In this document: positions 8,016 to 36,812 of the stretch, one piece after another
Numbering within the stretch: position 1 is the stretch's first letter
Layout of the letters: each line of letters opens with the position of its first letter
From: Sarea resinae
Taxonomy: Eukaryota
NCBI GenBank assembly: GCA_026026165.1
Contig: JAPEUD010000002.1
Coordinates: 186,001 to 250,000 of the forward strand
Length of the DNA stretch: 64,000 nt
Direction: 5' to 3'
Position numbers and translations under genes: made by a program
The notes under the pieces: model-generated
What the model was told of the DNA's origin: nothing
What the model saw: the letters and a program-made list of their open reading frames with translations, nothing else
Database searches by the model: none

Positions 8016-8415
8016 TGTCATGGGTCAGAATGGTTCGGTCAGGATTAGTCAGCAAGTCACGTGCATTGTTCTTAGGGCATATGGTTCAAGGAGGATGGTG
8101 TTACGTTAAGGGGTCAGGATCAATTTAGAAGTTCATCAGTTCAGTCATGTTTAGTTTTTCAGGCAGCTTTCAAGCGCAGAGCAGTTCTTCATTCTTTAGT
8201 TAAATCAATCAATCGAGAGCTCTCCCACCACTTCCTTCCTAGAGGAGCAGTCACCTTCTGATCCCTCTGCTTCGTGCTATTCCACCGATTATGCCTCAGT
8301 AGTAGGTTGTTAAGTAGTTGTTATAGCTATCTCGTCGACTACACAAGGAGTCATCAGGACCGTCTAAGTGTTCCGCTTCAGCACTGATTTGGTGCGTCTA
8401 TTTCGTCCCTCTATA
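8016..8415 (+). repeat. 3' LTR of Gypsy A (400 bp), preceded by the polypurine tract
   Basis: TG...TA(CA) ends. The 3' end GTGCG.TCTA.TTTCGTCCCTCTATA resembles the end of LTR B. PPT at about 8004-8015. Confidence 0.85.
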
Positions 8416-10200
8416 ACGTTAGGAATGCACATTCTCTTAATTAAATTTTAGCTGTATAAACTCTCTCCTAATAACTCTAGTAGATAGCTGTATTGTATTA
8501 CTCTCTCTATAGTCTCTCTGCTATATTTATTTAGTTATGCTAAACCTAGCAACCTTTAATGTTAATATTTAAGCAAATACTTAGATAGTACACAAAGGTC
8601 TATAGCTATTAAGTCTAAACCTATAACTATTACTTTAGCTTTAATTCACTATGTTCTAAAGGTGTTACAAAGAGATCCTATATAGCGAATAGTTATCTAG
8701 CAGCAATTATATTATAATACTTTTATCTTCTAGTAGTAGCAGACTGCTTATACAGATATAGGTTAATATAGAAGCCCTTAATAGGATTCTAAGATGTAGA
8801 AAAGCACAACCTAGTCTCTCTTCTACTAAGTTGCTAATGTTATAACTAGCTGCCTAAGAGTAATGTGTTAATAATACAGATATTAGTAAGAGTATCCTAG
8901 TCTTAAAAAGACAAGCACTTCTATAATACAACAGCACTATAGCTCTTTAGAGTATACTTAGTCTCTTATAACAGGTATAATACATACACTTAAGGCTCTT
9001 TAGACTATAGTAAGATATTGCTATATGTAATAAATCTCTTAACTAATACCTCTATCCTTAATACTAGTAATATGCTTTAGCACTAAAGACTCTCTAAACC
9101 TTAGAGCTATTTTCTTAGTTAAGCTAGTAACGCTTTCTCCTTAAGATAATTCTATTAGCAAATCTTCTATAGCAGATTATAGAAAACTACTAGTTTAAAC
9201 AATGCTTTCTTCTTTACTAGCTAGGCCTTTGAATTCTAAGGCGATAATAGGTTTATAATAACATTTATAATTAATATACAAAGATCTTACTAAGGATTCT
9301 ATAGAGACTAGGCCTAGAAACTAAAATTTCTATTGCACTAGATATATAGCAGAGTCTAAATAAGATATCCTTTCTTTCTATAATAGAGTATTTTATTAAT
9401 AAAGACTAGAATTACTAGGAAGTCCTTCTAGGGTTTAAAAAGATAACTAGAGAGCACTCTAGTTGTAATATAGCTACATTACTACTTAATTAACTTTAGT
9501 GTTTTAACATTTAGGTTTGTCTTTAATGTTTATAGTAATGCTTTTAGGTAACATTACATTGTAGGATTATATACTAGCTGTAATAACAGATAACGCAGGT
9601 AATAACAACATAATGCGTTAAGAGCTAATAAGTCTACTTACTAATCACTATTAGATTGTATAGGATTATAAGGTTGCTTATATACCTTACCTTACGCATA
9701 TTATTTAGCTTGTAGTTGTGGCTTTTAATAAGTGCCTAAAAATTACTGCTTTAAATAAGTCTATATAAGATACCTAGTTAGATACAGACTAAGAGCTGCT
9801 TTAGCAGCTTCCTTCTAAAGACTCTTTTAGCAGCACGTTATAAAAGGTAAGTGCTAATAACCCTTATCTATTACTACCTCTAAAGTTTCTAGATTTATAC
9901 ACTTACTATCTATATTACTACTTTATTATAGCAAACTACGCGCTTTTATAATCTGCAGCTAACGCTAGTTAATATAATCTAAGATGTTAAAACTTAATAG
10001 AACTTAATATATAATATGCTAAAGCAGGCCTAGCAGCTATAAGATACTCTTTAGATGTTTTTTATTAGTAAAACTAGTCTTATTATATGTAGAACTTATG
10101 TCTCTCCTACTAGTTAGGACTATATTCGCTATCTAATTATCTTACTAAAGCTATTTAATAATTAGATAAGAGCTATGTCTTAGACTAAAGGCGTAACTAT
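8416..10200 (+). mobile_element. Oldest hAT copy (copy 3), internal fragment with the 5' part of the transposase, heavily RIP'd and with internal deletions
   Basis: Reverse-complement match to ~14680-16595 of copy 1 (e.g. aggaatgcacattctcttaa). Interrupted by Gypsy A on the left and Gypsy B on the right. Confidence 0.9.
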
Positions 10201-10589
10201 TATAAGAGATTAAACTAGATTGCACTAGATAAGTGCTAGACAGTCCTAAAGATATAGGAACTACTAAATTGTAATAGCGCTGCTATGCTTAATAGTTGTT
10301 GAGTGTGTTATTGTCTTAGGTCTCTCTGCTAATATATCTTAGAGAACTTAAATAGGCAGCAGAACAAGCGTATTAATTAATAGGAGCTATTAGCCTATAG
10401 CTTAGTAACTAAGTAATAAGAAGAAGAGAAGAAAACTAACGCGCTAACTGCTTGCTTAACTAAATGCTAGAAAACTAATAACTAAATACATGCTTAAAGA
10501 ACTAATAATGCCTCCTTTTAAACCCCTAAGGAACACAACCCTACTACTAACACCTAATAACTAAGCTATTACTAGTTTACCCTATCACA
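10201..10589 (-). repeat. 3' LTR of Gypsy B
   Basis: Near-identical to 36813-37201. On the minus strand it begins TGTGATAGGG after the purine tract AGGAGAGAAAGA. Confidence 0.92.
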
Positions 10590-13510
10590 TCTTTCTCTCC
10601 TATAAAAATAAAGTTAGCCCTTAACTTTACTAACACACAAAAGACATGTCTGTTAAGGAAAAGGTAGGAAAAGCGTTCCTATAACTTGTTGCCCCTACGC
10701 TTCCTAGTTAAGCAGCAGAGAGATAGGTCTGTTACCTGTCTATACAATTATAGCATTTCTTACATAGTCTAGCTATCGAACAGATTAGACAACTTATTCC
10801 CTAGTAGCAGAGCTTCTTAAACACTTTTATAAGGAGATGTTTTAGGATTTAATAATGCTGCAGTTTTCTGCTTCTTTAAAGGACAGGCTAGGAATAGTCC
10901 TTGTTGTTTACACTTATTAGGTTTAGAACTCCTAGCCTGTCTAGAAGAACCTTTGCTAATCATGTTATAAGTAAGGTCTTAAGAGAGTTAGTCTATTAGA
11001 TTAAGCAACTGCATTGCTTTTGTTATTAGTTAGTCTTAGACTTAGGCAAACTCTTTGCTTGCTGCCTTTTCTATATTATTATTAGCAAAGACTAGCTTAA
11101 TATCTAATTTAACAGCGAACTTTCCCTTAGCTAGGCTAGAGGAAACAATTTTATAGAGGTCTTCTAAAACATCTAATTCTTCTAACTGTTTAGAGTCTGT
11201 GTCATTATTAGATACATGTGTTCTGTGTTCTATAGAGTAGAAATATAATTTGTTTCTATAGAGGCGCATTTCTATTCGCTTAAATACCTTAAAGGCTTTG
11301 CAGTATTAGCTTAGGGCTTAGTGTCTCTATCGCTAAAGATATCTAGTGACCTTGTCTGCATTGTCCTCTATAAGAATTCTTCGCTCCTCTATAACTTCTA
11401 GCTTATTAAATCTCCTCTTTCTAACTAAGTAATTAGATGTAGCCCCTAACTCTATTAATAAGACTGCTGCTAGAAATTTACCTAGGACCTCTCTATACAT
11501 ATTAGGATGCCTGCTTAGGCTGTTTAGTAGAGGTGTTAGGTCTCTAAAACATGCAGATATGTTCTCCTAAGTTCCTAACTCTAAAGCCTCTAGAGTCTAG
11601 TAGTTAGTATAGACACAAACTTTCTATAGATAAATAACGCGGCAGCAAGCTATTAGCTTTTTAGTAGTCCTATAGGCAGCCTTAGGATTTGTAACTCAGA
11701 GGTCCTAGGCTTAAAGAGGCTGCGCAGTCTTTATTATGCTAAATCTTTCTTTGTCTGCTTTTATAACCTATCTTCTATTAATAGTAGTAACTTTCCTAGT
11801 GTGTGTGTATAGCTTTAGGTTGTGTTTCTTAACTTCTTTAGCCTAAAGTTTAAAGGAATAACTTATGCTAAAGTAGACTATAGTGCAATTTTGTTTATCC
11901 TTAGGTTTAATAGCAATAGCAAATTAAATTATATTTGCGCCTTAGTCCTCCTTAGCTAGCTTGCAGACATTCTAGTCTAAATAGTAGAATCCTATATAGT
12001 TGCCTTTAGATAAGGATTTAGTATAGTAAGGATAGCTAATAAGCTGTATGTTCTAGTCTAGCTAGTAGAAAACAGTAATTAGGTAATACTACAGGTCTAT
12101 GTTAATTAGCTGCTAGAAAAGAGAGTAGAACATTATCTAAACCTAACTCTAATTAGCTTTCTTATTAACCTTATGTTAATAATGTTTGTAGCACGCAAAT
12201 TCTTCCTTTACTATATCTGCTAGTCTAGGTGCTAACTCTATCTATTAGTAAGCTTTGTTAATAATAACTAATCTATTTTTATCCTAGTCTGCTATATATG
12301 TCTTAAACTGCTGTTTAGTGTAGGTATAGGTAGGTATAAACTCCTCTATATTAGTTTCTGCCTTTAACTAGTATAACCCTCTAGTATCTGCTAGGCGCTT
12401 AGGTTAGATCTTCTTACTAAACTAAACGTAGGTTTCTTTCTTAACTATAAAATCCACGAAATCTCCTAGCTAGGCTAGGAGCTCCTGAAATTGTTGTCTT
12501 AATTCTATGTCTAAAGCATTATTCTTTATGCTAATACGCGATGCAAGTGCCTTTATATAGTTTTAGCAAAGCTGTTTAGTATTATATGTCGTGTTAATTG
12601 TCTCCTACGTTTGTAATAGCTTAATCGCGATTGTAGAGGTGGCTAGTTTCTTGCTTGCAACTGTATCTAGGAGCAAAGCTAGGACCTATAGAGTATATTT
12701 ACAGCCTTTAACAACTAGCTTCTGTTTGACTTTAGATTCCTTTAACAGAATCTTCTAGCCTGTCTAGGAGTTCTTAACTAGCTGTGATACTCTAATAGTT
12801 AAATTTAACATAATATTCTTAGCCCTAAGCAATAACAACTTAGTAGCAAGTGCTTTCTTTTCTAATTCCTCTTCTAGAAACTCCTTAGGTTTCTTCTCTT
12901 TATTATTGTTAGTAGTAAGTCTCTCCTTTATAGCGTCTTTATAATCTGTCTTCTTCTTTAGTAGATCTTACAGGCTATTCTATTCTAGGTCAGCTTCTCT
13001 AAGGATCCTATACATATTAACAAGTGCTTCTACTATCTAAAGGTCTTTCTTAGTGAATAAGAAGATTTCTAACTAGGCTGTCCACTTGGGTTTAGGTACT
13101 CGGCCTAAATTAAGGTTTGGGCGGGTTAGCCCGCCCGATTACATAATCAGGTTGGGTTTGGGCGGGCTCAATTGGCTGTAGGGCCCACGGCCTACCCATC
13201 GGGTATATGCGGGTTGATTGATAAGATAAGGAGTAGATTGATAAGATAAGATTATTGAAAGGTAACACATAGAGGTAACATCTAGAGGGTAAATGCGATG
13301 AAACTATAGGAATTGTAGAATAAGAATAATAGTATAATAATACACTCTATATGTTTAGTTTATAGTGCCCTACATAATCTACACTATATGAAAACCACTA
13401 AATCATCCTCTAAACCTTTATGATGTAGTATGTTTTACCAGAACTAATTCTACTCTAACAGAGATAAATATATGCTGTAGCACATACAAAGCAAACTACT
13501 ACAGGTGTAA

Positions 13511-16338
13511 CTATTCACGCAATTGAGAAGGAAATAGACTAGTTCTAGAAGAGAGCCTCTGTGCCTTTGACCTAACAAATAAATCATCCACAGTTGAACG
13601 CGGGCGCTTTCTTTGAGACAATATAGATTGAGCGTTGTCGTGCCTAGAGCGTTAAAGCAAAGACTGCTGCTGTAAAGCAGGTTTATCTGGCTGCACTGTA
13701 GGTAGAGGTGGAAGTGGTAAAGAGTGCTCATCACTAGAAAACCTATACAGGTCTGTGTCATCCTGTATCGCAGGCCCACTATTGATTAAGGTTGGCTCAT
13801 TATCATCACTAATAACAAGTAAATGATCATCAAATTCAGCTGATAGCGTGTGTTGATAATCAGTGTCCTTAGAAATACTGTCAGATTCATCTTCACCTAT
13901 GTGGAAGCAGAGTTCATCGCGATCAAAGTACTTCACAACCATAGTGTTCCGAACTGTTTCTGCTGAAAGGCGACTTCGACAAAAGGTAATAAGGTCTCGT
14001 GCCTCATTGAAAGTCCGTTCAACACTAACAGCAGCTCTAGGTATAGCAAGAATGTCTTTTGCCATTTGTTTAAGCGAGGGCTAGTAGTGTGATCGCTAGA
14101 ACTAGTAGAATGTCAGCACCTGCACACAGAAATGTTACCCGAAAGTGTTACCTGCAAAGGATCCTTGTGATCTGTAGCTGGCGAAGATAGATACTGACTG
14201 ACTAGATCTGTAACAGAGTGATGTTGTTTCTGAAGCGTCTTGGCCTGTGCAAGTGAATTGACATCTAATGCTGATATAGAGAGTGCAGCAACATCTGAGG
14301 AGGCAACTTTAGTTCTTGCATAATGCAACTGATAATAGTCCTCAAATTCGCGCCGGTACTTTCGCAAATATTCATGGCCCTAGTCATCAGACTTCTCAGC
14401 TATTAGCAAAACATTCCTAGAGGACGAGGTAAAGGTAACAGATTTAGGTAACATACTTTATATAGATCAAGCCTTGTTAAGGGATCAAGGATGCATGCTA
14501 AATTGAACATTCTCCCTTGTACTCCTTCAGTATCTCGGTAGTACTTAGAGAGCTTAGTCTTTGCTGCTTCTATAGCAGAAGTAAGCTCTTGTTTCTAGGG
14601 TGTCCGCTTAGGCCGCATCTTGTTTAGATGCTTCTCTAAGTGCTCAAAAATCTGAGAGTATACAAACCAGGTCTTGTAGATAGTTACGCCTTTAGTCTGA
14701 GACACAGCTCTTGTCCAATCATCAAATGGCTTTAGTAAGACAATCAGATAGCGAATATAGTCCTAACCAGTAGGAGAGACACGAGTTCTGCGTATAGCAG
14801 GACTAGTTTCGCTAACAAGAAACATCTGAAGGGCATCTCGCAGCTGCCAGGCCCGCTTCAGCATATTATATGTTGAGTTCCATCGAGTTTTAACATCTTG
14901 GATCATATTGACTAGCGTTAGCTGCAGATCACAAAAGCACGCAGTTCGCTGTGATAAAGCAGCAATATAGACAGCAAGTGCACGAATCTAGAAACTTTAG
15001 AGGTAGTAATAGACAAGGGTTGTTAGCACTTACCTTTTGCAACGTGCTGCTAAAAGAGTCTTCAGAAGGAAGCTGCTGAAGCAGCTCTTAGTCTGCATCT
15101 GACTAGGTATCTTGTATAGACTCGTTCGAAGCAGTAATTTTCAGGCACTTATTAAAAGCCACGACTGCAAGCTGAATGACATGCGCAAGGCAAGGCACAC
15201 GAGCAACCTCATGATCCTATACAATCTGATGGTGATTAGCGAGTAGACTTGTCAGCTCTCGACGCATTGTGTTGTTGTTGCCTGCGTTATCTGTTGTCAC
15301 AGCCAGTATGCGATCCTACAATGTAATGTTACCTAAAAGCGTTACTATAAACATTAAAGACAAACCTGAATGTTGAAACACTGAAGTCGATTGAGTAGTA
15401 ACGTAGCTATGTTGCGACTAGAGTGCTCCCTAGTCATCTTTTCAAACCCTAGGAGGACTTCCTAGTAATTCCAGTCTTCGTCAATAAAATACCCTATTAT
15501 AGAAAGAAAGGATATCTTATTTAGACTCTGCTATGCATCTAGTGCGATAGAAATTTTGGTTTCTAGGCCTAGTCTCTGCAGGATCCTTGGTAAGATCTCT
15601 GTATATCGATTATAAATGTTATTATGAACCCATTGTCGCCCTGGAATTCGAAGGCCTGGCTAGCAAAGGAGGAAGCATTGTTTGAACCAGTGGTTTTCTA
15701 TGATCCGCCATAGAAGATTTGCTGATAGAATTATCTTAAGGAGGAGGCGTTGCCAGCTTAACTAAGAGAATGGCTCTGAGGTTTAGGGAGTCTTTAGTGC
15801 TAAAGCACGTTGCTAGCATTAAGGATAGAGGTATTAGTTAAGAGATCTATTACATATAGCGATATCTTACTGTAGTCTAAAGAGCCTCAAGTGTGCGCAT
15901 TGTGCCTGCTGCAGGAGACTGAGCACACTCTAGAGAGCTATAGTGCTGTTTCATTGCAGAAGTGCCTGTCCCCTTAAGACTAGGATGCTCTTGCCGACGT
16001 CTGCATCGTCGACACATTACCCCTAGGCGGCCAGTTGCAACATCAGCAACCTGGTAGAAGAGAGACTAGGTTGTGCTTTTCCGCGTCCTAGAATCCTATT
16101 GAGGGCTTCTATGTTGACCTATATCTGCATAAGCAGTCTGCTGCCACCAGAAGATAAAAGTATCATGATATGATTGCTGCCAGATAACCATTCGCCGTGT
16201 AGGATCCCTCTGTAACACCTCTAGAACATAGTGAATCGAAGCTGAAGTAATAGTCGTAGGTTTAGACTCAATAGCTGTAGACCTTTGTGTACTATCCCTA
16301 AGTTCCTTATAGTCTGATGTTTCAAACGAATTAGACAT
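13511..16338 (-). pseudogene. hAT transposase (spliced, RIP-damaged)
   Basis: C-terminal hAT dimerisation motif MAKDILAIP..AVSVERTFNEARDLIT..RSRLSAETV. AVTTDNAGNN, RVPCLAHVIQL and DVKTRWNSTY core motifs on the minus strand. Cys/His BED-like N-terminal region near 15.9-16.05 kb. 3' end approximate. Confidence 0.9.
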
Positions 16339-16724
16339 TGTAAAGGAGAAATTTGCAGCGATAAGAAAGTGCAGAAGGCCTCAGAACGTACAGCAGAGTG
16401 AAGAGGTAGGAAGTGCCCTTAACTAGAGAAGTATTTGCTCAAATGTCGACATTAAAGGTTGCTAGGTTTAGCATAACTAAACAAACACAGCAGGGAGACT
16501 ACAGAGAGAGTAATACAATACAGCTGTCTACTAGAGTCATTAGGAGAGAGTTTATGCAGCTAAAATTTGATTAAGAGAATGTGCATTCCTGACGTGATTA
16601 ATGTACGCAATGTTACTAGTAAGTGTTACCTTTTTAGTAAACCAAATTCCAGAGAAAAAGTGAAAATCCACCCCTAGGCAGACACAGACCAATAAAGAAA
16701 AGCCACTCGGCTATAACTGCCCCC

Positions 16725-18584
16725 CTACTTATCGCCATCCCTAGCAGCACTAGAACTAGAGTCCTCCCCTTCAGCATTGTCAGCAGAGTCATCCTTACTC
16801 TCCTCTGCATTGACAGGAACATTCTCAGCCGTTGTCAGCAGAGCCTCCTCTATAGCAGATCCAGCAATAGCAGGGTCCTCTCCTTTAGGAATGTCCTCTA
16901 GCTGAGTTTTCTCTCCCATAGTCGGCAGCACAAAGTCTTCCTTATCACTTGAGATTGGGTCAATATCCTTATCAGATGACAGAAACACTTCTGCTTCTGA
17001 ATTGCTGAACCTAGCAAAATCAGTCCCAGCCTCTGTGTCACTGTCAGAGAGGGTTGCACGGTCCTTAACCCGCTCTACAAACTCTAACATTGCCTCCTTT
17101 GGATTGAGATCACCAGCTTCCACCAGATCATCATAGCTATAGCGGTGGATGTCTCTCTTATAGCGGCGGACCACTTTTAGCAAGCGACTTCTAATGCGTT
17201 TGCCCTATGCTCTAAATGACAAGTCAGGCTCATCTGAATTTTGTCCCTGCTGAACCAATTAGACAAATGCTGCAAAGAAACGTTACCTAAAAGTGTTACC
17301 TTAGGATCGGCACCACTATCAGGTTAGCTATCTCTATTGTCTTTAAGTAGCAAGATATTAACAACATCCTTAACTATCTGCTTGTCGTCCTTAGCCTTTG
17401 CTTTCTCTGCCTTGATAGCCTTTTGCTGCTGCATAGTAACCCACTCAGCAGACTGGTGGAGGAAAAAGCGTCGTTCTATCAATTTGTCTATTTCAGGGTC
17501 CACAACAGTCTCCTCAAAGTCTTGTCGTTGTGCTGTTGTCATACTAGCGTAATTATTCTCGCGACAGAGTTTGCCTCTCAGGGTGGATTTTGCTTTCCTA
17601 TCTGCTCTATCTGCTTTTTTCAGTGTCTTCTTAAACTCAGTATCGCTGAGTTTACTATCTAGCTCTAACTCTAATGCTTCAGACTTCGCTTCCTTAAGCT
17701 GCGCTCTGGCGATCTGTTGTTGTTTGCTGTAGGGAACCATCCTAGGCCTTATCTCACTAGCATGACGTCTTTGTGGGCGGGCTTTCACACGTTCTACTAG
17801 GCTAGCCATCTCTAGGTCGAATGTTCCCTTAGGATGAGAGGAAGTTGTAGGGGTTGCACTGCAAGTTGCACTGATGTCAGTCACTGGCAAACAATGTTAC
17901 CTGAATGTGTTACCTTAGACGTCTCTTCCTAGGAGCAGGAGAGTCTAAGCTCTCTAGCTCATTATCAAGGTCAATCTCCTTCTGCTTCTGTCCCTTAGAT
18001 ATAGTCCTATTGCTTCATTAGCTTTGTGTTTAGAAGTGTTACTAGGATGTGTTACTGCTTCTGCTTCTTATAAGCCTTTCCTACTTTGTCTGAAAACTTT
18101 GCTTTTCTAACCTTGTCTGAGAAATTTGCTTTTGTCTTCTTAACAACAGAGACTATCTCAACTTTATCGCTGCTGTTATTACTAGAGTAGCACTGTCAGC
18201 AGATATCTACAGAATGTGTTACCTAAATGCGTTACCTAGCCTCACTATCTGTCTTCTTATTACCACTTCCTTTCTGACTGCTGCTACTATGCAAGGAATT
18301 GTTCATAACCCTATCCTCAAGATCTATAGGCAGTTAGTTATTGTCTTTGTGTTCTTCTATATCTAGACTTAGCGCAGTTGTGCTGGATTTAGCTTTCTCA
18401 AGCTTTTGCTGTTTCCTGAACTAATGTAAGCCTTCTGTAGTACTATTGTTACCTTAATGTGTTACCCTTAGCTCTGAGCTGCTAGTAGGCTATGATTTCT
18501 AGGAAGAAGTAAGTTTCACCTCACTTTTATCTCACTTAGAAGTCTAGAACTCACCTCTTCTTTATGATAACAGTTTTCTCTATA
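16725..18584 (-). pseudogene. hAT cargo ORF2, multi-exon, Lys/Glu-rich with an acidic C-terminus, function unknown
   Basis: Track ORFs 17324-17890 and 16725-17183, plus upstream exons separated by short GT-AG introns with CTRAY branch sites. Conserved in copy 2. Start codon inferred from a RIP'd ATG and approximate. Confidence 0.6.
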
Positions 18585-18707
18585 GCTGCCTTGTCTTAAG
18601 AGGAGCTTGTAAGAGATGTAAGTGATTTAGAGGGTAATTAGCCAGCTATCTTATCACTTTCTACTGCCTAAACAGTTAGGGAGTTGATAGGATTAATGAA
18701 ATTGATG

Positions 18708-19163
18708 AAATCTTAATGATGTTGATGACAGAAGTGATGAAATTAGAGAGAAAGAGCAACCCTCCTGCTATAGGAGAAGGTTGCTGATGATGTAGGTGGT
18801 AAGGTTGAATTGCGTAGTGGATTTAGGCACGCAAGATTCAGGCGGAAGGTACGTACCTTATTGAACGGTCAATAACATTCACTGCAAGGTACGTACCTTA
18901 TTAAACAGTCAATAACATTCACTGCAAGGTACGTACCTTATTGACCAGCCAATAACACTGACTGAGGTACGTACCTTGCAGTGAATGTTTACCTTAATAT
19001 CACACAGGTCTACCACTCAATTCAACCTTACCACCTACATCATCAGCAACCTTCTCCTATAGCAGGAGGATTGCTCTCTCTTATCAACTTCGTCACTTCT
19101 GTTATCAAACTGACAAGACTTGATAAACTTTATCACTTCTGTTATCAGCATCATTAAGATTTC
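18708..19163. promoter_or_regulatory. Quasi-palindromic intergenic region (putative bidirectional promoter) between divergent ORF2 and the H3-like gene
   Basis: Inverted arms (~18708-18820 versus ~19008-19163) enclose three 40-bp tandem units carrying the palindrome AAGGTACGTACCTT, plus one inverted unit. Confidence 0.6.
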
Positions 19164-19443
19164 TCTCTTAGTGCTCTTTAAGTTTTAAGGTTAAGGTGAG
19201 TTTCAGAACTACTGCTTGATAGTAACACATTTAGGTAACATTTGAGACTGCAAAGGCACTCAGCTAATTATTCCTAACTACAGACAACTCTCTGGATTCT
19301 TTCTTCAATACCAACTAAAGATTCTCCTTTAGCACTCTCTACACTACACTCTCACTCTCTTGACATAATCATAGTCACTAATACAGTAAGTTATTCTTTC
19401 CTGCCTCTACTAGTAACACTTAATAGTAACATTTTACTAGACA

Positions 19444-20176
19444 ATGGCTTGTACTAAGCGTACTGCCCGCAAGACTGTCCCTAGTACTAGTGGGAAAGGA
19501 AAAGGAAAAGGCAAGGGAATGTCTGCTGCTAAGGCTCATCGTGTTACTAGTGGCAAATCCCCACGCAAGAACTTGGCTAGCATGGCAGCACGCAAAGGTC
19601 GTCTTGCTACTAGACAATGCTTCACTACTAGCACATATGCTGAACGCTAAAAGGCCTACAAAGATGCTATGAAAGCATAGGTTCGTGAGGATACTGCCTT
19701 TTATGGTCGTGGTGAGGTTTATAGTGTGCCTAAACCAATCCAACCCTGTCGCACTCGTCTAGGCAGTAAGTCTCAGTCTCTAAACTCTAAGGGTAACACA
19801 TTATAGTAACATTTGAACACCACAGCATCCGCACTCTGTGAAATCAAGAGATTGCAAAAATCTGTTGATTTAGTCATTCTAAAGCTCCCTTTCCAGCGCC
19901 TGGTCTGCGAGGTTACATCTTATCACCGCTACCTCCCTAGAGAGCTCTGTTTTCAGTCATCAGCTATGTATGCCTTGCAAGAAGCCACTAAGGCTTTCAT
20001 AGTTAGGTTCTTTGAAAGTGAGTTTTTCTATCTCTTCTTCTATCCTATACTTAATTTTTCTAGATGTGCTTTAGGCCTGCATTCATCAGAACCGTGTGAC
20101 TATCAATCACAAAGACACTCAGTTTATCAAGGCTTTGATGAAGGGCTTTGGTATCTAGATCTCTAGTGACACATAG
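19444..20176 (+). pseudogene. Divergent histone H3-like gene inside hAT copy 1 (coding exons ~19444-19765, 19826-20017, 20064-20158/20176)
   Basis: MA(R)TKRTARK...T(G)GKSPRKNLASMAARK tail. After splicing: (P)GT-SAL(R)EIKRLQKSVDLVI(P)KLPFQRLV(R)EV...EL(R)FQSSAMYALQEAT(E)AF...FE-NVL.ACIH(R)NRVTINHKDTQ, a complete H3 histone fold. A few RIP-type stops. Confidence 0.93.
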
Positions 20177-22654
20177 GTTAAGTTTCTATAGCATTGGCTC
20201 TAAGGTTTTACTGGTCCTAGTGGCGCAATTAGGGATGCAATTAGGGATGCAGTTAGGGATGCAATCAGGGCTTCTCTAGTCTTCTAGTCACAGGTCATAG
20301 GAAGTCATAAGAGGCTTATAGTTTTTCTCTGCCTTTTAGCATTTTCAGTCTTTACTTTACTTAGTCTACAATAAAGACTCAATAGACTTAGTAACACATA
20401 TAGGTAACATTCGTAGGGTAATAGCGGCTTTTTAATGCTCTGTGAAACATGCCCTGCAATCTATGCTATTTTAGCTACCATCTTTATGTCACGTGACAGG
20501 TACCCACGCCCACCTACTAGGTCCTGTCAGGCGGGTTGATTAGGGCATAGGTACTCGATACCTATGCCTAGGCGGGTTCTTCTACCCCTACCCGCCTAGT
20601 GGGTACCTAAGTGGACACCCTATTTCTAACTTTTTGCCTTTCTCTAACTTTTTAAGAGCCTTTGCTAGTCGTTCCTAATCCTTAGAAGTTTGCTTAACAA
20701 CAGATTTAGAAAGCCCTTGCTTTCTTCCTCCTATAAGTTATTGTATAGCTTCTAAGTTTACTATTCTTATCGCCTTATTAAATAGATACTAAGCTGTAAC
20801 ATGCTTTATATTGTCTAGGTGATTTCTAGACATTTCTGCTTCTAGCAGATAACAGGCATTATTATCTCTCTACTTATTTCTAATCTTTTGTCTTCCTTTA
20901 GCAATGCGCTTCTTCTTATTATAGGATTCCTTAGTAAGATTAAATATCTTAAGGATGTTGCCTATCTAGTGCGTCTTAATATACTTAGCTAACACTAAGT
21001 CCTTTTTAACTTCTTTAACACTCTATTTATACATCTACAAATAACAGGTATAGTGCTTACTTATCTTATTAATAAAAGTCTTATAGAAGTTGACTTTTTC
21101 TTAGGGGTTAGCTATTATGCTTATATAAGTGTAAATAGATTCTACATTCTAGAATAGGATGCTAGAAATAGTTATAAACATATCTTTTGCCTTAAGCGCT
21201 GTTGTACTAGGTGTAGCTAGTGTAAGAGAGGTGTAGGGCAAGGTAGAAGACATATTAGTCCTCTAGTTTTCTTCTAGTTAGTCCTAGAGATTAGACTGTG
21301 TGATATGTCTTAGAGAACTTAACTTAGCTGCTAGCGCTTCTAATATTAAGGTGTCTACTTCTTCTTCCTAGGTATTGCTAAGTGATTGCTTAATGTATGC
21401 TTACCTAGCAAGTAGTTCTTTAGCTAGTTTAGTTTAGCTATGTGATTTAAGGGCTTCTTCTAGTCCTTTGCCTTTAAATTCTTCACAGATAATAGAGAGA
21501 TTAAGCTGTGTAGTAAGGGTAATAAAGAGGTCCTAGCTGTTGCCTTTAGATAAGGTAGATAGAGGTGCTAGGGTTTCTTCTTATATAGACAATTGCTAGC
21601 CAGCTATTTTTAGCGATTCTTATCTCCTAGACTATCTAGAAGATTAGAGAGAGCAAATATCCTTAAGAGTATAAAAAGATTTTTCTCCTAGGAATGCTAA
21701 GAGATTATAAATAACTATAGAGCGTGATTAGATAAGAGAGGCAATTATGCAGATTTTCGCTTATTATCTAATAAGGCGTTAGACAGCAAGTGCTAATAGT
21801 AAGCAAGCTAATAAGGTAAGAAGCATAAGCAAGCTAATTAAGAAGAGAGGTCTATAATAGGTAAATAATATAGGAAGAGCAGATAAGACAGCAGCAGCAG
21901 AAATTGCATAAGAAGTAGGAAAATATTTAGAGAAGATAGAGGCAAGCAGGCAGAAGATGTTTTCTTATAGTCCTTGCTTAGAGTGTATATAACTAGATTC
22001 CTGCTAATAATTGTTAGATATTAGCGTAAAAAAAGTGTTATCTTGCTTTTCTTTATAGTGAATTTTAGCGTGTTATTAAGCTAAAGTAGTAGCTGCAGCG
22101 TTAGTGATGCGCTTAAGCAAGGTTCTTTGTTATCTGTATTGCTTCTTTATTTACCCTTACTTTTATGCGTGTTTCGCACCTAAAAGTAAGGTGAAAGTGA
22201 GATAAATTTAAGATAAGGTTAAGCGAGTAGTAAAAACAATCTTTGCAACGCTAACTAAGGCGAATAGTAGCTGTAAGGCAGATATATAGTGCTTATATAA
22301 GTTAGGAATGCTTGTCATGCGATTTTACTAACTTATAGCGTGTTGTTAAATTTAGATAGAGGCTGCATGCTTTGTAGTGTTACCCTTTAGGTCTGACTAG
22401 AAGATTAGGCTAGTAGAGTCTGTTTTGCCTTAATATAAGCTAAAGAAGTAAAGTAATATAATGTGTAATAAATTAGAAATGTTATTGCAGATTGTTAGGT
22501 ATACTATGCTATACAATATAAGCTACGCCTCTTACACCTCTAGCAAGGTAGACTATAGTTAAAAAGATCTAGCTAGATAAGGTTATGCATATACACACCT
22601 CTCTCTAGTTTCTTTTAAAACTTCTAGCTAGGCTAGAAAGTTTTGTGCTATATA

Positions 22655-26845: not shown

Positions 26846-27290
26846 AGAAAAGCTAGGCTGTCTACTTAGGTTTAGGTACTCAGCCTAAATTAAGGTTTAG
26901 GCAGGTTAGCCCGCCTGATTACATAATCGGGTTGGGTTTAGGCGGGCTCAATTGGCTGTAGGGCCTACAGCCTACCTATTAAGTATATGCAGGTTGATTA
27001 ATAAGATAAGGAGTAGATTAATAAGATAAGATTATTGAAAGGTAACATATAGAGGTAACATCTAGAGGGTAAATGCGATAAAACTATAGGAATTGTAGAA
27101 TAAGAATAATAGTATAATAATACACTCTATATGTTTAGTTTATAGTGTCCTACATAATCTACACTATATAAAAACCACTAAATCATCCTCTAAACCTTTA
27201 TAATGTAGCATGTTTTACTAGAACTAATTCTACTCTAACAGAGACAAATATATGCTGTAGCACATACAAAGCAAACTACTACAGGTGTAA

Positions 27291-30118
27291 CTATTCACGC
27301 AATTGAGAAGGAAATAGACTAGTTCTAGAAGAGAGCCTCTGTGCCTTTGACCTAACAAATAAATTATCTACAGTTAAACGCAGGCGCTTTCTTTAAGACA
27401 ATATAGATTGAGCGTTGTTGTGCCTAGAGCGTTAAAGCAAAGACTGCTGCTGTAAAGCAGGTTTATCTAGCTGCACTATAGGTAGAGGTAGAAGTAGTAA
27501 AGAGTGCTTATCACTAGAAAACCTATACAGGTCTGTGTTATCCTGTATCGCAGGCCTACTATTGATTAAGGTTAGCTTATTATTATCACTAATAACAAGT
27601 AAATAATCATCAAATTCAGCTGATAGCGTGTGTTAATAATTAGTGTCCTTAGAAATACTGTCAGATTTATCTTCACCTATATAGAAGCAGAGTTTATCGC
27701 GATTAAAGTGCTTTACAACTATAGTGTTCTGAACTGTTTCTGCTAAAAGGCGACTTTAATAAAAGGTAATAAGGTCTTATGCCTTATTAAAAGTCTGTTC
27801 AACACTAATAGCAGCTCTAGGTATAGCAAGAATGTCTTTTGCTATTTGTTTAAGCGAGGGCTAGTAGTGTGATCGCCAGAACTAGTAGAATGTTAGCACC
27901 TGCACACAGAAATGTTACCTGAAAGTGTTACCTGCAAAGGATCCTTGTAATCTGTAGCTAGCGAAGATAGATACTGACTGACTAGATCTGTAACAAAGCG
28001 ATGTTGTTTCTGAAGCGTCTTAGCCTATGCAAGTGAATTGACATCTAATGCTGATATAAGGAGTGCAGCAACATCTAAGGAGGCAACTTTAGTTCTTGCA
28101 TAATGCAACTGATAATAGTCCTTAAATTCGCGCCGGTACTTTCGCAAATATTCATGGCCCTAGTTATTAGACTTCTTAGCTATTAGCAAAACATTCCTAG
28201 AGGATAAGGTAAAGGTAATAGATTTAGGTAACATACTTTATATAGATTAAGCCTTGTTAAGGGATTAAGGATGCATGCTAAATTAAACATTCTCCTCTGT
28301 ACTCCTTTAGTATCTTAGTAGTACTTAGAGAGCTTAGTCTTTGCTGCTTCTATAGCAGAAGTAAGCTCTTGTTTCTAAGGTGTCTGCTTAAGCCGTATCT
28401 TGTTTAGATGCTTCTCTAAGTGCTTAAAAATCTGAGAGTATACAAACTAGGTCTTGTAGATAGTTACGCCTTTAGTCTAAGACACAGCTCTTGTCTAATC
28501 ATTAAATAGCTTTAGTAAGACAATTAGATAGCGAATATAGTCCTAACTAGTAGGAGAGACACGAGTTCTGCGTATAGCAGGACTAGTTTCGCTAATAAGA
28601 AACATCTAAAGGGCATCTCGCAGCTGCTAGGCCTGCTTCAGCATATTATATGTTGAGTTCTATTAAGTTTTAACATCTTAGATCATATTGACTAGCGTTA
28701 GCTACAGATCACAAAAGCGCGTAGTTCGCTGTGATAAAGCAGCAATATAGACAGCAAGTGCACAAATCTAGAAACTTTAGAGGTAGTAATAGACAAGGGT
28801 TGTTAGCACTTACCTTTTGCAACGTGCTGCTAAAAGAGTCTTTAGAAGGAAGCTGCTAAAGCAGCTCTTAGTCTGTATCTAACTAGGTATCTTGTATAGA
28901 CTTGTTTAAAGCAGTAATTTTTAGGCACTTATTAAAAGCCACGACTGCAAGCTGAATAACATGCGTAAGGCAAGGCATATAAGCAACCTTATAATCCTAT
29001 ACAATCTAATAGTGATTAGCGAGTAGACTTGTTAGCTCTTAACGCATTGTGTTGTTATTGCCTGCGTTATCTGTTGTCACAGCTAGTATGCAATCCTACA
29101 ATGTAATGTTACCTAAAAGCGTTACTATAAACATTAAAGACAAACCTAAATGTTGAAACACTAAAGTCGATTAAGTAGTAACGTAGCTATGTTGCGACTA
29201 GAGTGCTCTCTAGTTATCTTTTCAAACCCTAGGAGGACTTCCTAGTAATTCTAGTCTTTGTCAATAAAATACCCTATTATAGAAAGAAAGGATATCTTAT
29301 TTAGACTCTGCTATACATCTAGTGCGATAGAAATTTTGGTTTCTAGGCCTAGTCTCTGCAGGATCCTTAGTAAGATCTCTGTATATCGATTATAAATGTT
29401 ATTATAAACCTATTGTCGCCCTAGAATTCGAAGGCCTAGCTAGCAAAGGAGGAAGCATTGTTTAAACCAGTGGTTTTCTATGATCTGCTATAGAAGATTT
29501 GCTGATAGAATTATCTTAAGGAAGAGGCGTTGCTAGCTTAACTAAGAGAATAGCTCTAAGGTTTAGAGAGTCTTTAGTGCTAAAGCACGTTGCTAGCATT
29601 AAGGATAGAGGTATTAGTTAAGAGATCTATTACATATAGCGATATCTTACTGTAGTCTAAAGAGCCTTAAGTGTGCGCATTGTGCCTGCTGTAAGAGACT
29701 AAGCACACTCTAGAGAGCTATAGTGCTGTTTTATTGCAGAAGTGCCTGTCCCTTTAAGACTAGGATGCTCTTGCTAACGTCTGCATTGTCGACATATTAC
29801 CCCTAGGCGGCTAGTTGCAACATTAGTAACTTAGTAGAAGAGAGACTAGGTTGTGCTTTTCCGCGTCCTAGAATCCTATTAAGGGCTTCTATGTTGACCT
29901 ATATCTGCATAAGCAGTCTGCTGCCACTAGAAGATAAAAGTATCATGATATAATTGCTGCTAGATAACTATTCGCTGTGTAGGATCCCTCTGTAACACCT
30001 CTAGAACATAGTGAATCGAAGCTGAAGTAATAGTCGTAGGTTTAGACTTAATAGCTGTAGACCTTTGTGTACTATCCCTAAGTTCCTTATAGTCTGATGT
30101 TTCAAACGAATTAGATAT
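27291..30118 (-). pseudogene. hAT transposase, copy 2
   Basis: Collinear with 13511-16338 (offset 13780). Start codon mutated to ATA. Confidence 0.88.
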
Positions 30119-30504
30119 TGTAAAGGAGAAATTTGCAGCGATAAGAAAGTGCAGAAGGCCTTAGAACGTACAGCAGAGTGAAGAGGTAGGAAGTGCCCTT
30201 AACTAGAGAAGTATTTGCTTAAATGTTGACATTAAAGGTTGCTAGGTTTAGCATAACTAAACAAACACAGCAGAGAGACTATAGAGAGAGTAATACAATA
30301 CAGCTGTCTACTAGAGTCATTAGGAGAGAGTTTATGCAGCTAAAATTTGATTAAGAGAATGTGCATTCCTAACGTGATTAATGTACGCAATGTTACTAGT
30401 AAGTGTTACCTTTTTAGTAAACTAAATTCTAGAGAAAAAGTGAAAATCCACCCCTAGGCAGACACAGACTAATAAAGAAAAGCCACTTAGCTATAACTGC
30501 CTCT

Positions 30505-32391
30505 CTACTTATCGCTATCCCTAGCAGCACTAGAACTAGAGTCCTCCTCTTTAGCATTGTTAGCAGAGTTATCCTTACTCTCCTCTACATTAACAGGAAC
30601 ATTCTCAGCCGTTGCTAGCAGAGGCTCCCCTATAGCAGACCTAGCAATAGCAGATTCCTCTCTTTCAAGTCCTTCACAAATGTCCTCTCCTTTAGGAATG
30701 TCCTTTAGCTGAGTTTTCTCTCCTATAGTCGGCAGCACAAAGTCCTTCTTATCACTTGACATTAGGTCAATATCCTTATCAGATGACAGAAATACTTCTG
30801 CTTCTAAATTGCTAAACCTAGCAAAATTAGTCCTAGCCTCTGTGTCACTGTTAGAGAGGGTCGCATAGTCCTTAACCCGCTCTACAAACTCTAACATCGC
30901 TTCCTTTAGATTAAGATCACTAGCTTCCACTAGGTCATTGTAGCTATAGCAGTAGATATCTCTCTTATAGCGGCGAACCACTTTTAGCAAGCGACTTCTA
31001 ATGCGTTTGCCCTATGCTCTAAATGACAAGTCAGGCTTATCTGGATTTTCTCTCTGCTAAGCTAGTTAGACAGATGCTGCAAAGAAATGTTACCTAAAAG
31101 TGTTACCTTAGGATTAGCGCTACTATTAGGTTAGCTATCTCTATTGTCTTTAAGTAGCAAGATATTAACAACATCCTTAACTGTCTGCTTGTCGTCCTTA
31201 GCCTTTGCTTTCTCTGCCTTAATAGCCTTTTACTGCTGTATAGTAACCTACTTAGCAGACTAGTAGAGGAAAAAGCGTCGTTCTATTAGTTTGTCTATTT
31301 TAGGGTCTACAACAGTCTCCTTAAAGTCTTGTTGTTTTGCTGTTGTTATACTAGCGTAACTATTCTCACGACAGAGTTTGCCTCTTAGGGTAGATTTCGC
31401 TTTCCTATCTACTCTATCTGCTTTTTTCAGTGTCTTCTTAAACTTAGTATCGCTGAGTTTGCTATCTAGCTCTAACTCTAATGCTTTAGACTTCGCTTCT
31501 TTAAGCTGCGCTCTAGCGATCTGTTGTTGTTTGCTGTAGGGAATCATCCTAGGCCTTATCTTACTAGCATAATGTCTTTGTAGACAGGCTTTCACACGTT
31601 CGACTAGGCTAGCTATCTCTAGGTCGAATATTCCCTTAGAGTGAGAGGAAGTTGTAGGGGTTGCACTGTAAGTTGCACTAATATCAGTCACTAGCAAATA
31701 ATGTTACCTGAATATGTTACCTTAGATGTCTCTTCCTTAGAGCAGGAGAGTCTAAGCTCTCTAGCTTATTATTAAGGTTAATCTCCTTCTGCTTCTGTCC
31801 CTTAGATATAGTCCTATTAGTTTATTAGCTTTGTGTTTAGAAGTGTTACTAGGATGTGTTACTGCTTCTGCTTCTTATAAGCCTTTCCTACTTTGTCTGA
31901 AAACTTTGCTTTTCTAACCTTGTCTGAGAAATTTGCTTTTGTCTTCTTAACAACAGAGACTATCTCAACTTTATCGCTGCTGTTATCACTAGAGTAGCAC
32001 TGTCAGCAGATATCTACAGAATGTGTTACCTAAATGCATTACCTAGCCTCACTATCTGTCTTCTTATTACTACTTCTTTTCTGACTGCTGCTACTATGCA
32101 AGGAATTGTTTATAACCCTATCCTTAAGATCTATAGGCAGTTAGTTATTGTCTTTATGTTCTTCTATATCTAGACTTAGCGTAGTTGTGCTAGATTTAGC
32201 TCTCTTAAGCTTTTGCTGTTTCCTAAACTAATGTGAGCCTTCTGTAGTACTATTGTTACCTTAATGTGTTACCCTTAGCTCTAAGCTGCTAGTAGGCTAT
32301 GATTTCTAGGAAGAAGTAAGTTTTACCTCACTTTTATCTCACTTAGAAGTCTATAACTCACCTCTTCTTTATGATAACAGTTTTCTCTATA
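30505..32391 (-). pseudogene. hAT cargo ORF2, copy 2
   Basis: Track ORFs 30505-30990 and 31260-31697 match 16725-17183 and 17324-17890. Confidence 0.6.
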
Positions 32392-33250
32392 GCTGCCTTG
32401 TCTTAAGAGGAGCTTGTAGGAGATGTAAGTGATTTAGAGAGTAATTAGCTAGCTATCTTATCACTTTCTACTGCCTAAACAGTTAGAGAGTTGATAGGAT
32501 TAATGAAATTAATGAAATCTTAATGATGTTAATAATAGAAGTGATGAAATTAGAGAGAAAGAGCAACCCTCCTGCTATAGGAGAAGGTTGCTAATGATGT
32601 AGGTAGTAAGGTTGAATTGCGTAGTAGATTTAGGCACGCAAGATTCAGGCAGAAGGTACGTACCTTATTAAACAGTCAATAACATTCACTGCAAGGTACG
32701 TACCTTATTAAACAGTTAATAACATTCACTGCAAGGTACGTACCTTATTGACCAGCTAATAACACTGACTAAGGTACGTACCTTGCAGTGAATGTTTACC
32801 TTAATATTATATAGGTCTACTACTTAATTCAACCTTACCACCTACATTATCAGCAACCTTCTCCTATAGCAGGAGGATTGCTCTCTCTTATCAACTTTGT
32901 CACTTCTGTTATCAAACTAATAAGACTTGATAAACTTTATCACTTCTGTTATCAGCATCATTAAGATTTCTCTCTTAGTGCTCTTTAAGTTTTAAGGTTA
33001 AGGTGAGTTTTAGAACTACTGCTTAATAGTAACACATTTAGGTAACATTTAAGACTGCAAAGGCACTCAGCTAATTATTCCTAACTACAGATAACTCTCT
33101 AGATTCTTTCTTTAATACTAACTAAAGATTCTCCTTTAGCACTCTCTACACTACACTCTCACTCTCTTAACATAATTATAGTCACTAATACAGTAAGTTA
33201 TTCTTTCCTGCCTCTACTAGTAACACTTAATAGTAACATTTTACTAGACA

Positions 33251-33983
33251 ATAGCTTGTACTAAGCGTACCGCCTGCAAGACTGTCCCTAGTACTAGTAG
33301 GAAAGGAAAAGGAAAAGGCAAGGGAATGTCTGCTGCTAAGGCTTATCGTGTTACTAGTAGCAAATCCCTACGCAAGAACTTAGCTAGCATAGCAGCACGT
33401 AAAGGTCGTCTTGCTACTAGACAACGCTTCACTACTAGCACATATGCTGAACGCTAAAAGGCCTACAAAGATGCTATAAAAGCATAGGTTTGTAAGGATA
33501 CTGCCTTTTGTGGTTGTAGTAAGGTTTATAGTGTGCCTAAACTAATCTAACCCTGTCGCACTCGTCTAGGCAGTAAGTCTTAGTCTCTAAACTCTAAGGG
33601 TAACACATTATAGTAACATTTGAACACCACAGCATCCGCACTCTGTGAAATTAAGAGATTATAAAAATCTGTTGATTTAGTCATTCTAAAGCTCTCTTTC
33701 TAGCGCCTGGTCCGCAAGGTTACATCTTATCACCGCTACCTCTCTAGAGAGCTCTGTTTTTAGTCATTAGCTATGTATGCCTTGCAAGAAGCCACTAAGG
33801 CTTTCATAGTTAGGTTCTTTAAAAGTGAGTTTTTCTATCTCTTCTTCTATCCTATACTTAATTTTTCTAGATGTGCTTTAGGCCTGCATTTATCGGAACT
33901 GTGTGACTATTAATCACAAAGACACTTAGTTTATTAAGGCTTTAATAAAGGGCTTTAGTATCTAGATCTCTAGTGACACATAG
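33251..33983 (+). pseudogene. Histone H3-like gene, copy 2 (ATG mutated to ATA)
   Basis: Collinear with 19444-20176. Keeps some ancestral codons lost in copy 1 (e.g. LVR, RN, QRF). Confidence 0.9.
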
Positions 33984-34437
33984 GTTAAGTTTCTATAGCA
34001 TTAGCTCTAAGGTTTTACTAGTCCTAGTGGCGCAATTAGGGATGCAATTAGAGATGCAGTTAGGGATACAATCAGGGCTTTTCTAGTCTTCTAGTCACAG
34101 GTTATAGGAAGTCATAAGAGGCTTATAGTTTTTCTCTGCCTTTTAGCATTTTCAGTCTTTACTTTACTTAGTCTACAATAAAGACTTAATAGACTTAGTA
34201 ACACATATAGGTAACATTTGTAGGGTAATAGCGGCTTTTTAATGCTCTGTGAAACATGCCCTGCAATCTATGCTATTTTAGCTACTATCTTTATGTCACG
34301 TGACAGGTACCTACGCCTACCTACTAGGTCCTATCAGGCAGGTTGATTAGGGCATAGGTACTTGATACCTATGCCTAGGCAGGTTCTTCTACCCCTACCC
34401 GCCTAGTAGGTACCTAAGTAGACACTCTAAGAAAAGC

Positions 34438-36787: not shown

Positions 36788-36811
36788 GTTTAAGCCCTAT
36801 ATAGGTCACTA
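36788..36811 (-). other. Putative primer-binding site of Gypsy B
   Basis: One base from the 5' LTR. The plus strand GTTTAAGCCCTATATAGGTCACTA reverts by RIP-type changes to a tRNA-3'-end-like GTTCGAGCCC....GGTCACCA. Confidence 0.6.
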
Positions 36812-36812
36812 A

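Follow-up and report, generated by a model that had tools for sequence, protein, structure and literature searches.

A bipartite GTAAC motif in the predicted introns of a histone H3-carrying hAT transposon from Sarea resinae

Introduction

The VANC21 protein is described as binding a family-specific 9-mer in the introns, intergenic DNA and terminal non-coding DNA of VANDAL21, where the units stand in tandem and in one orientation (Hosaka et al. 2017, PMC5735166), and sequence-specific regulators encoded by transposable elements, TnpA included, are known more widely (10.64898/2026.08.24.746577). Here we analyse a hAT transposon in a 64,000-nucleotide stretch of Sarea resinae DNA (positions 186,001 to 250,000 of contig JAPEUD010000002.1, assembly GCA_026026165.1; hereafter the window, in whose coordinates all positions are given). 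This element carries 14 copies of a bipartite motif, GTAAC-N8-GTAAC, most of them inside short introns. The introns are models from sequence, and our statements on binding and splicing are readings of that sequence. Among described systems, VANDAL21 and VANDAL6 offer the closest working likeness of these sites, since there too a family-private motif, rare elsewhere in the genome, occurs as tandem units in introns, intergenic DNA and terminal DNA. A preliminary description of the locus had drawn the same analogy, which holds for the distribution (introns, terminal non-coding DNA, tandem units) and fails for membership. VANDAL is a Mutator-like plant element, whereas the window element is a hAT; the VANDAL21 binder is encoded by its element, whereas no VANC-like protein was detected in the window element, whose sites are putative binding sites; and VANDAL carries dense tandem arrays in long introns, whereas in the window element a motif-bearing intron of ~50 nt has a single bipartite unit that merges with splice signals. 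The window sites consist of two or three units each with a period of 13–14 bp, and both orientations are present. Because the superfamily differs, no VANC-like protein was detected and dense arrays are absent, the element is not a member of the VANC/VANDAL system.

By gene content, the nearest described counterparts are other fungal hAT elements. A 5.6-kb hAT element of Pyrenophora tritici-repentis is reported to contain a transposase gene, a histone H3-like gene and, between them in a central position, an open reading frame (ORF) of unknown function (Manning et al. 2013, PMC3538342), the same three-gene architecture as that of the window element, which measures 7.5 kb; the two are likened here by gene content, not by sequence, and the parts of that account available to us mention no intronic motif. 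An H3-carrying hAT family of the Mycosphaerellaceae is described as having 8-bp target-site duplications (TSDs) and 18–20-bp terminal inverted repeats (TIRs) and as having been amplified and rendered inactive through repeat-induced point mutation (RIP) of CpA to TpA (Dhillon et al. 2019, PMC6710886). In its TSD and TIR sizes, its possession of H3-like sequence and its RIP pattern it is, as far as described there, like the window element, but it is ~9.5 kb long and has one or two intron-less H3 copies, whereas the H3-like gene of the window element (H3L) has predicted introns. In the consensus file that accompanies that paper (~45 kb), GTAACAC and ATGTTAC occur 0 times and GTAACAT and GTGTTAC once each, and a k-mer check, which is not an alignment, found none of the four 9-mers taken from the TIR core of the window element (both strands, in intact and RIP form); the word ‘motif’ has 0 occurrences in its main text. 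The combination of a hAT element with an H3-like gene is already published; in the parts consulted, the two papers on such elements say nothing of a bipartite motif joined to splice signals in most introns. Nor did our search of the transposon literature turn up a report of a fungal hAT element with arrayed sites for a regulator of its own, or of a motif that doubles as 5′ splice site and branch site to fit 50-nt introns.

A discrete bipartite motif restricted to the element

An exact search of both strands of the window for GTAAC-N8-GTAAC returns 27 matches, against a mean of 0.10 and a maximum of 2 in 100 dinucleotide shuffles. All 27 lie in hAT sequence: 14 in copy 1 of the element (13074..20622), where they span 13262-20408, 12 in copy 2 (26853..34429), and one, at 37734, in a fragment. 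Decayed sites at 37433 and 9535 lie in the two inverted fragments of the element. The remaining ~45.4 kb of non-hAT DNA in the window, RIP-mutated AT-rich stretches included, holds 0 exact matches. The preliminary description had listed 14 copies and had seen none outside the hAT element; each of them was recovered within 1–2 nt and on the same strand, and the motif is indeed private to the hAT sequence of the window.

Allowing up to one mismatch raises the count to 31 (3.13 expected), a gain of four, three of which are decayed orthologous hAT sites and one an unrelated match at 40161. Since a mismatch adds so little, the sites form a discrete class rather than the tail of a degenerate continuum. 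The 14 pairs account for 28 of the element's 36 GTAAC pentamers; every pair has a spacing of 13 bp (14/14), and a search across the element for pairs at any other spacing found none. The consensus, rGTAACACwTtnagGTAACATt, shows that letters outside the searched pentamers are conserved as well. Each site is made of two head-to-tail WRGTAACAY units, 13 bp apart, with the same extended 9-mer in both, and the first and last letters of the pentamer (G1 and C5) are invariant in 28/28 units. Nearly all GTAACAYWT 9-mers of the window (38/39) fall in hAT sequence. Neighbouring sites are 142–1284 bp apart along the element. In the region 41000-64000 the hexamer GTAACA occurs 7 times against 5.8 expected, and counts there are too few for a host donor consensus.

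These numbers bear on one alternative, that the motif has no separate function and that composition or chance produced it in short, AT-rich, RIP-mutated introns. Because it looks like either splice signal, GTAAC could show some enrichment in introns. However, 27 sites stand against 0.10 expected and their spacing is fixed; none occurs in the 45 kb of other DNA, which includes RIP-mutated AT-rich sequence; four of the element's own introns lack the motif; and RIP cannot give rise to identical letters at 14 sites of each copy. The shuffle count, the fixed spacing and the one-mismatch search effectively refute a by-product, and we consider it extremely improbable.

A metagenome scan with the 21-nt degenerate motif yielded at least 118 stretches. 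Among the 117 loci listed, 114 have one bipartite site, three have two and none has more; the matches listed are at chance level, and no relative of the element was found among them. One metagenome contig of 2526 nt (L018) has an identical bipartite site, GTAACACTTTTGGGTAAC, in inverted orientation ~100 nt from each end, a pair that may form the terminal repeat of some small, unrelated element.

Placement in predicted introns and overlap with splice signals

All 14 sites of copy 1 are non-coding by the gene models, which comprise a transposase gene (13652..16338, minus strand), ORF2 (16725..18306, minus strand) and H3L (19444..20158, plus strand). Sixteen introns of 41–88 nt were modelled, 870 nt in total or 11.5% of the element, and 12 of the 14 sites lie inside them (binomial p=4e-10). 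Eleven intronic sites and six motif donors had been proposed in the preliminary description; the excess over chance stands, with the counts revised to 12 and, as set out below, seven. Its picture of introns as a platform for the sites is apt for the 12 sites in 0.87 kb of intron and incomplete, because ~2.2 kb of other non-coding DNA holds only two.

In seven introns the first GTAAC is the intron start, and the site lies on the minus strand. One is in the transposase gene, at the 5′ end of intron T5 (site 14134..14151; intron 14102-14151, 50 nt), with donor GTAACA. Four are in ORF2, at the 5′ ends of introns O6 (site 17282..17299; intron 17250-17299), O5 (17896..17913; 17859-17913), O4 (18038..18055; 18007-18055) and O3 (18218..18235; 18182-18235), the last with donor GTAACG. 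The other two begin the predicted intron S1 in the spacer between ORF2 and the transposase gene (16612..16629; 16589-16629) and the predicted 5′ untranslated region (UTR) intron O2 (18448..18465; 18416-18465), both called from splice signals. Six of these donors read GTAACA and one GTAACG, so that 7 of the 16 modelled introns have GTAAC[A/G] donors. The C at +5 departs from the GTAAGT or GTGAGT of motif-less introns, which are T1, T3, O1 and H4, with donors GTAAGA, GTAAGT or GTGAGT.

Four further introns, T2, H1, H2 and H3, have a separate canonical donor (GTTTGT, GTGAGT, GTAAGT and GTAAGT, respectively) 20–27 nt before the motif. Three of them lack a CTRAY branch motif, and their second GTAAC ends 10–15 nt short of the 3′ splice site: T2 (15316-15365), with its site at 15328..15345 on the minus strand (+21 in the intron, 12 nt short); the predicted intron H2 (19386-19440), with its site at 19413..19430 on the plus strand (+28, 10 nt); and the H3L coding intron H3 (19766-19825), with its site at 19793..19810 on the plus strand (+28, 15 nt). 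From this position and the missing CTRAY, the second unit is the likely branch site, G1 standing in place of the C of CTRAY. The site at 19222..19239 (plus strand) is in mid-intron (+27) of H1, a predicted 5′UTR intron of H3L (19196-19283, 88 nt). The twelfth intronic site, at 14435..14452 on the plus strand, is antisense within T4 (about 14395-14456), an intron whose modelled acceptor and phase are provisional, and overlaps positions +5/+6 of its GTATGT donor.

The two non-intronic sites, at 13262..13299 and 20391..20428, share a module of ~38 nt that adds a third, degenerate unit (GTAAC, GTAAC, GGGTAA) and have the same orientation, on the plus strand. The left module, antisense to the transposase gene, lies 188–225 nt from the left end and the right module 194–231 nt from the right end. 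The four sites that have no splice-signal role divide into two sense and two antisense.

Support for the introns varies. Homology backs T5 and H3: removal of T5 joins DPLQ in frame to FW..., with which the hAT dimerisation region usually begins, and the segment alignable to H3-like proteins (19831 to 20016-20019) is bounded precisely by H3 and H4. Reading frames open across the junctions back O3–O6; O3, O4 and O5 join three small ORF2 exons that are open in the required frames, and O6 keeps the ORF2 frame when two RIP-type stops are read through. The remaining introns, all UTR introns included, are called from their splice signals. Because the donor of O2 and of S1 is the motif itself, counting these two as ‘motif in intron’ is partly circular.

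Duplex DNA or pre-mRNA as the proposed target

Our preferred and still tentative reading, to which we give a probability of roughly 0.45, is that this hAT family has a cis-element of its own in the 14 sites, which may serve as docking sites on double-stranded DNA for a sequence-specific protein. Binding sites for such a protein had been proposed in the preliminary description; judged from the sequence, this is still the best reading, although the binders named there have lost ground. We infer that a protein binds here, and on DNA rather than RNA. It would be bound as tandem protomers or tandem domains on WRGTAACAY units in the duplex and would need sites along the whole element. In the ~5 kb of gene bodies, introns would be the only DNA free of coding constraint, and in introns of ~50 nt a 21-bp site would fit only by overlap with a splice signal. 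GTAAC would permit that overlap, its first four letters (GTAA) forming a 5′ splice site and its last four (TAAC) a branch site. Candidate effects of binding are transcriptional or chromatin control across the element, VANC- or TnpA-like and possibly tied to the element's own H3-like histone.

Several features fit this arrangement. Tandem protomers bound to a rigid duplex would account for the fixed 13-bp spacing and the repeated 9-mer. Even at positions where they make a splice signal weaker, G1 and C5 do not vary, so that the unit was probably selected as GTAAC for a reader distinct from the spliceosome. Motif introns average ~55 nt and motif-less introns ~52 nt, in keeping with a site that gains its room through overlap. 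An overlap of GTAAC with splice signals is possible in the sense orientation alone, hence an overall sense bias; since the sites outside splice signals are evenly split, the bias follows from the overlap.

The chief rival, unlikely in our estimate, places the motif on RNA. Tandem GUAAC units on the pre-mRNA would be binding sites or pseudo 5′ splice or branch sites, and a host or element factor would license or repress weak GTAACA introns, gating ORF2, the transposase and H3L. In favour of this model, 11 of the 12 intronic sites are in sense orientation (p=0.006), seven stand at the exact intron start, three are at branch-site distance with no CTRAY alternative, and the density of the motif in introns is ~15-fold that in the rest of the non-coding DNA of the element. 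Each unit is also AG|GUAA-like and U1-complementary, and one base off a CTAACA-type fungal branch site, which we count on the same side. Splicing control on RNA does not, however, account for the sites at 13262 and 14435, which conform fully and are antisense to the only genes there, nor for the two sites outside any modelled intron; these antisense sites and non-intronic modules are explained by a duplex-binding factor and not by a sense-RNA element. No consistent splicing role emerges, since the motif is missing from four modelled introns and is accompanied by a canonical donor in four others, and an exact 13-nt spacing with a 9-mer unit is unusual for RNA-binding proteins.

Several findings weigh against docking on the duplex, and we set them together here. 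The sense orientation of 11 of 12 intronic sites (p=0.006) and the seven sites that begin exactly at the first intron base are explained more directly by control at the RNA level or by a common origin of the introns. Twelve sites fall in 870 nt of intron and two in ~2225 nt of other non-coding DNA (Fisher p=1.3e-5), a preference that a pure DNA model does not predict unless the sites must lie in transcribed gene bodies. Several UTR introns were predicted partly from the motif itself, which makes their contribution circular, and the comparison between copies described below shows no selection signal. The binder is likewise putative: ORF2 has no relatives, Pfam domain or ESM Atlas hit, a single-sequence structure model of its central exon consists entirely of long helices (pLDDT 75, pTM 0.38), and the N-terminal transposase exon, read through with X, gave no zf-BED or other zinc finger in Pfam.

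A further reading, which we rate as distinctly unlikely, is a private splicing code. The introns of the element would use GTAAC units in place of the host consensus for 5′ splice and branch sites; ORF2, with its basic N-terminus and tandem FSDKVxKA repeat, is the candidate for an element-encoded factor that would read them on DNA and/or nascent RNA. If so, expression of the transposase, ORF2 and the H3 variant would depend on the element's own product or, alternatively, the element would escape host surveillance coupled to poorly spliced transposon transcripts.

Possible intron multiplication

The motif introns might instead descend from one intron that copied itself, by an introner-like route or by reverse splicing, and the motif would then be a relic. 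According to Collemare et al. (2015, PMC4457414), introner-like elements of Dothideomycetes are long and members of one family exceed 80% pairwise identity, where regular introns measure 50–55 bp. Many introns share sequence in both cases, but introner-like elements, as described there, are alike over their full length and sit in unrelated host genes, whereas the window introns share 21 nt and all lie inside one transposon. Multiplication finds support in the seven introns with the same 5′ 21 nt at lengths of 41–55 nt, and in the presence of introner-like elements in Dothideomycetes (PMC4457414), a class from which H3-carrying hAT elements are also reported. The 3′ parts of the introns also reach a pairwise local score of 235 against 193 ± 8.6 in mononucleotide shuffles, a value attained by 0 of 500 shuffles.

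This last excess does not single out the motif introns. Comparing 3′ parts of motif introns with each other and with those of motif-less introns gives mean local scores of 11.2 vs 9.9 (Mann-Whitney p=0.08) and identities of 0.53 vs 0.51; as likeness within the motif class is no greater than across classes, the excess over shuffles reflects shared branch and acceptor splice signals. We rejected an introner-like element on whole-intron identity, which has a mean of 0.64 and a maximum of 0.72 and falls to 0.53 once the motif is removed, against 0.51 for motif-less introns. This alternative had been raised in the preliminary description and is not borne out, since no likeness extends beyond the 21-nt motif. 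The motif introns are of regular size (41–62 nt, with one of 88 nt), unlike the long introner-like elements. Four introns carry the motif internally behind a separate canonical donor, one intronic site is antisense, and two sites are not intronic at all. Neutral decay would not leave 28/28 perfect pentamers beside randomised flanks, so that selection on the motif would be needed under multiplication anyway. We regard an origin by multiplication as very unlikely.

End repeats and the transposase

Elements of the En/Spm and Ac/Ds type own short family-specific repeats that are bound by an element-encoded protein: 12-bp subterminal motifs for TnpA of En/Spm and AAACGG subterminal repeats for Ac/Ds. 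These are clustered in the subterminal few hundred base pairs, whereas 12 of the 14 window sites are internal and intronic and two other repeats, GGCGGG and AGGTAC, hold the ends. GGCGGG/CCCGCC has six of its seven element copies within 92 nt of an end (13120-13214 and 20530-20596), with 0.09 expected in the terminal 500 nt. AGGTAC has 12 element copies, four near the ends (19–20 nt from each end) and eight in the central promoter, with none elsewhere in the element; on sequence grounds these promoter and end units are a candidate transposase or autoregulatory site.

Such a layout bears on whether a domain of the transposase binds GTAAC, with internal copies that serve transposition or autoregulation. 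The three-unit modules lie 188–232 nt from each end, within the subterminal zone of hAT repeats known from Ac/Ds, and the N-terminus of the transposase has a CxxC...H...C pattern, seen by eye only. Against a transposase role, only 2 of 14 sites fall within 250 bp of an end, the other 12 being >1 kb away; the terminal modules have the same orientation rather than an inverted one; GGCGGG and AGGTAC suit an end-binding role better; and Pfam finds no zf-BED. The transposase, one of two binders named in the preliminary description, is a weaker candidate, because two other repeat classes mark the ends, and we judge internal transposase-binding sites to be distinctly unlikely.

Candidate binders

For a duplex-binding protein we infer that ORF2 or a host factor is more likely as binder than an end-binding domain of the transposase, a host factor being equally possible. 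ORF2 had been the other named candidate, and it too has lost support: the protein has no recognisable DNA-binding domain and no relatives. It found no match among 1.84 billion representative proteins and none in the ESM Atlas, and its pieces gave no Pfam domain. Its N-terminus is basic and contains a tandem repeat, FSDKVxKA; further features are long helices, an NLS-like PRKRR and an acidic tail. The second coding exon (18058-18180, minus strand) is basic and holds the tandem repeat KANFSDKVRKA / KFSDKVGKA together with SSDKVEIV. Two to three peptide repeats in ORF2 beside two to three DNA units per site offer a lead rather than evidence.

The preliminary description had also noted a Reb1-like half-site, CGGGTAAC, and had suggested that TAGGTAAC forms arose from it by RIP. 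This holds at one site only, where the three copies read CGG, CAG and TAG, so that RIP can generate TAGGTAAC there; other TAGG sites are identical in all copies.

Copy comparison and RIP

Copies 1 and 2 differ at 416 of 7549 aligned positions. Almost all differences are transitions (408), 278 are in CpA context, and in 371 of the 416 copy 1 has C or G where copy 2, the more RIP-mutated of the two, has T or A. The one public DNA run that contains the element (run X1) gave 1946 contig pieces with the same excess of C>T and G>A and 595 variable places; two runs from other organisms in the same study (X2 and X3), searched at 80% likeness, gave no element matches. The RIP-type transitions, the stops in the reading frames and the 1946 pieces mark an abundant, RIP-inactivated family, and every copy seen is dead.

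The motif was described earlier as conserved in copy 2. Twelve of its sites are exact there and two, at 28215 and 32025, each have one C>T in the first GTAAC, but this is no evidence of function. CpA dinucleotides within the motif changed between the copies at 3 of 35 positions against 275 of 935 elsewhere (p=0.007), before context matching. RIP-like change depends on context: CpA in TCAG differs at 48 of 82 sites (59%), and in ACAA, ACAC, ACAG and ACAT at 7–14%. With tetranucleotide matching 3.7 changes are expected and 3 observed, and we discarded protection of the motif from RIP as evidence of selection. Because CpA in ACA context is a poor RIP target across the element, the likeness of copies 1 and 2 carries no selection signal.

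Four deletion variants (16537/16609, 17833/17921, 18108/18180 and 19244/19406) were each seen in one contig of run X1. Of the eight end points, four are no more than 8 nt from the edge of a motif, a weak observation given contigs at 80% likeness and short sides. In the variant 19244>19406, H1 and H2 would become a single intron that contains two motifs.

The element and its surroundings

Copy 1 (7549 bp) is flanked by the 8-bp TSD TTTCTAAC at 13066-13073 and 20623-20630 and bounded by 18-bp TIRs, the left at 13074..13091 (plus strand) matching the reverse complement of the right at 20605..20622 (minus strand) in 16 of 18 positions. In a self-comparison, 13073-20622 and 26853-34429 are 94% identical. 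Copy 2 has a different TSD, AGAAAAGC, so that the two copies are independent insertions rather than a segmental duplication. The last exon of the transposase matches Pfam Dimer_Tnp_hAT (PF05699; 27.7 bits, cut-off 21.4, E=2.4e-6) and, with the TIRs and 8-bp TSDs, places the element in the hAT superfamily, as the preliminary description had it. The transposase gene, with five predicted introns (T1–T5), contains RIP-type in-frame stops, which are dense in its middle; protein searches with its single exons found no relatives. ORF2 is an orphan whose exons are open in the frames that the splice models require.

H3L matches Pfam Histone (PF00125; E=6.8e-12, above the cut-off) and has three in-frame RIP-type stops. 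A tblastn search with H3-like proteins matches 19831 to 20016-20019 and stops at the modelled exon edges; in the H3L exon search, six H3-like proteins share 50–61% identity over the histone fold. The predicted protein keeps K4 and the ARK(9) context (window 19444-19647), followed by a GKGKGKGKG-rich insertion, a second tail-like stretch, SGKSPRKNLASMAARKG, and then the histone fold.

ORF2 and H3L diverge from a central promoter region (18722..19108), an imperfect palindrome (~70% self-complementary) built of repeated AAGGTACGTACCTT units, a motif class distinct from GTAAC. Four AAGGTACGTACCTT palindromes stand in ~40-nt repeats, with units near 18847-18971.

Inverted hAT fragments at 8400-10207 and 37201-38818 are 86–89% identical to parts of copy 1. 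Each adjoins one of two other repeat copies (10193-10492 and 36805-37104, 93% identical), and fragments and repeats together bracket the entire AT-rich block with both full copies. The bracketing fragments may reflect a large inverted or nested arrangement. An Rfam search of the whole window returned no match.

Significance

Transposons with arrays of binding sites for a regulator that they encode themselves are known from a few plant elements (VANDAL/VANC and Spm/TnpA). The role of the histone H3 variant borne by elements of this kind has been a standing question since 2013, and a distributed, sequence-specific address label would give a route to ask whether such an element controls its own chromatin. 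The overlap of the motif with donors and likely branch sites in ~50-nt introns makes the finding a test case for how far a splice signal bends to serve a second reader.

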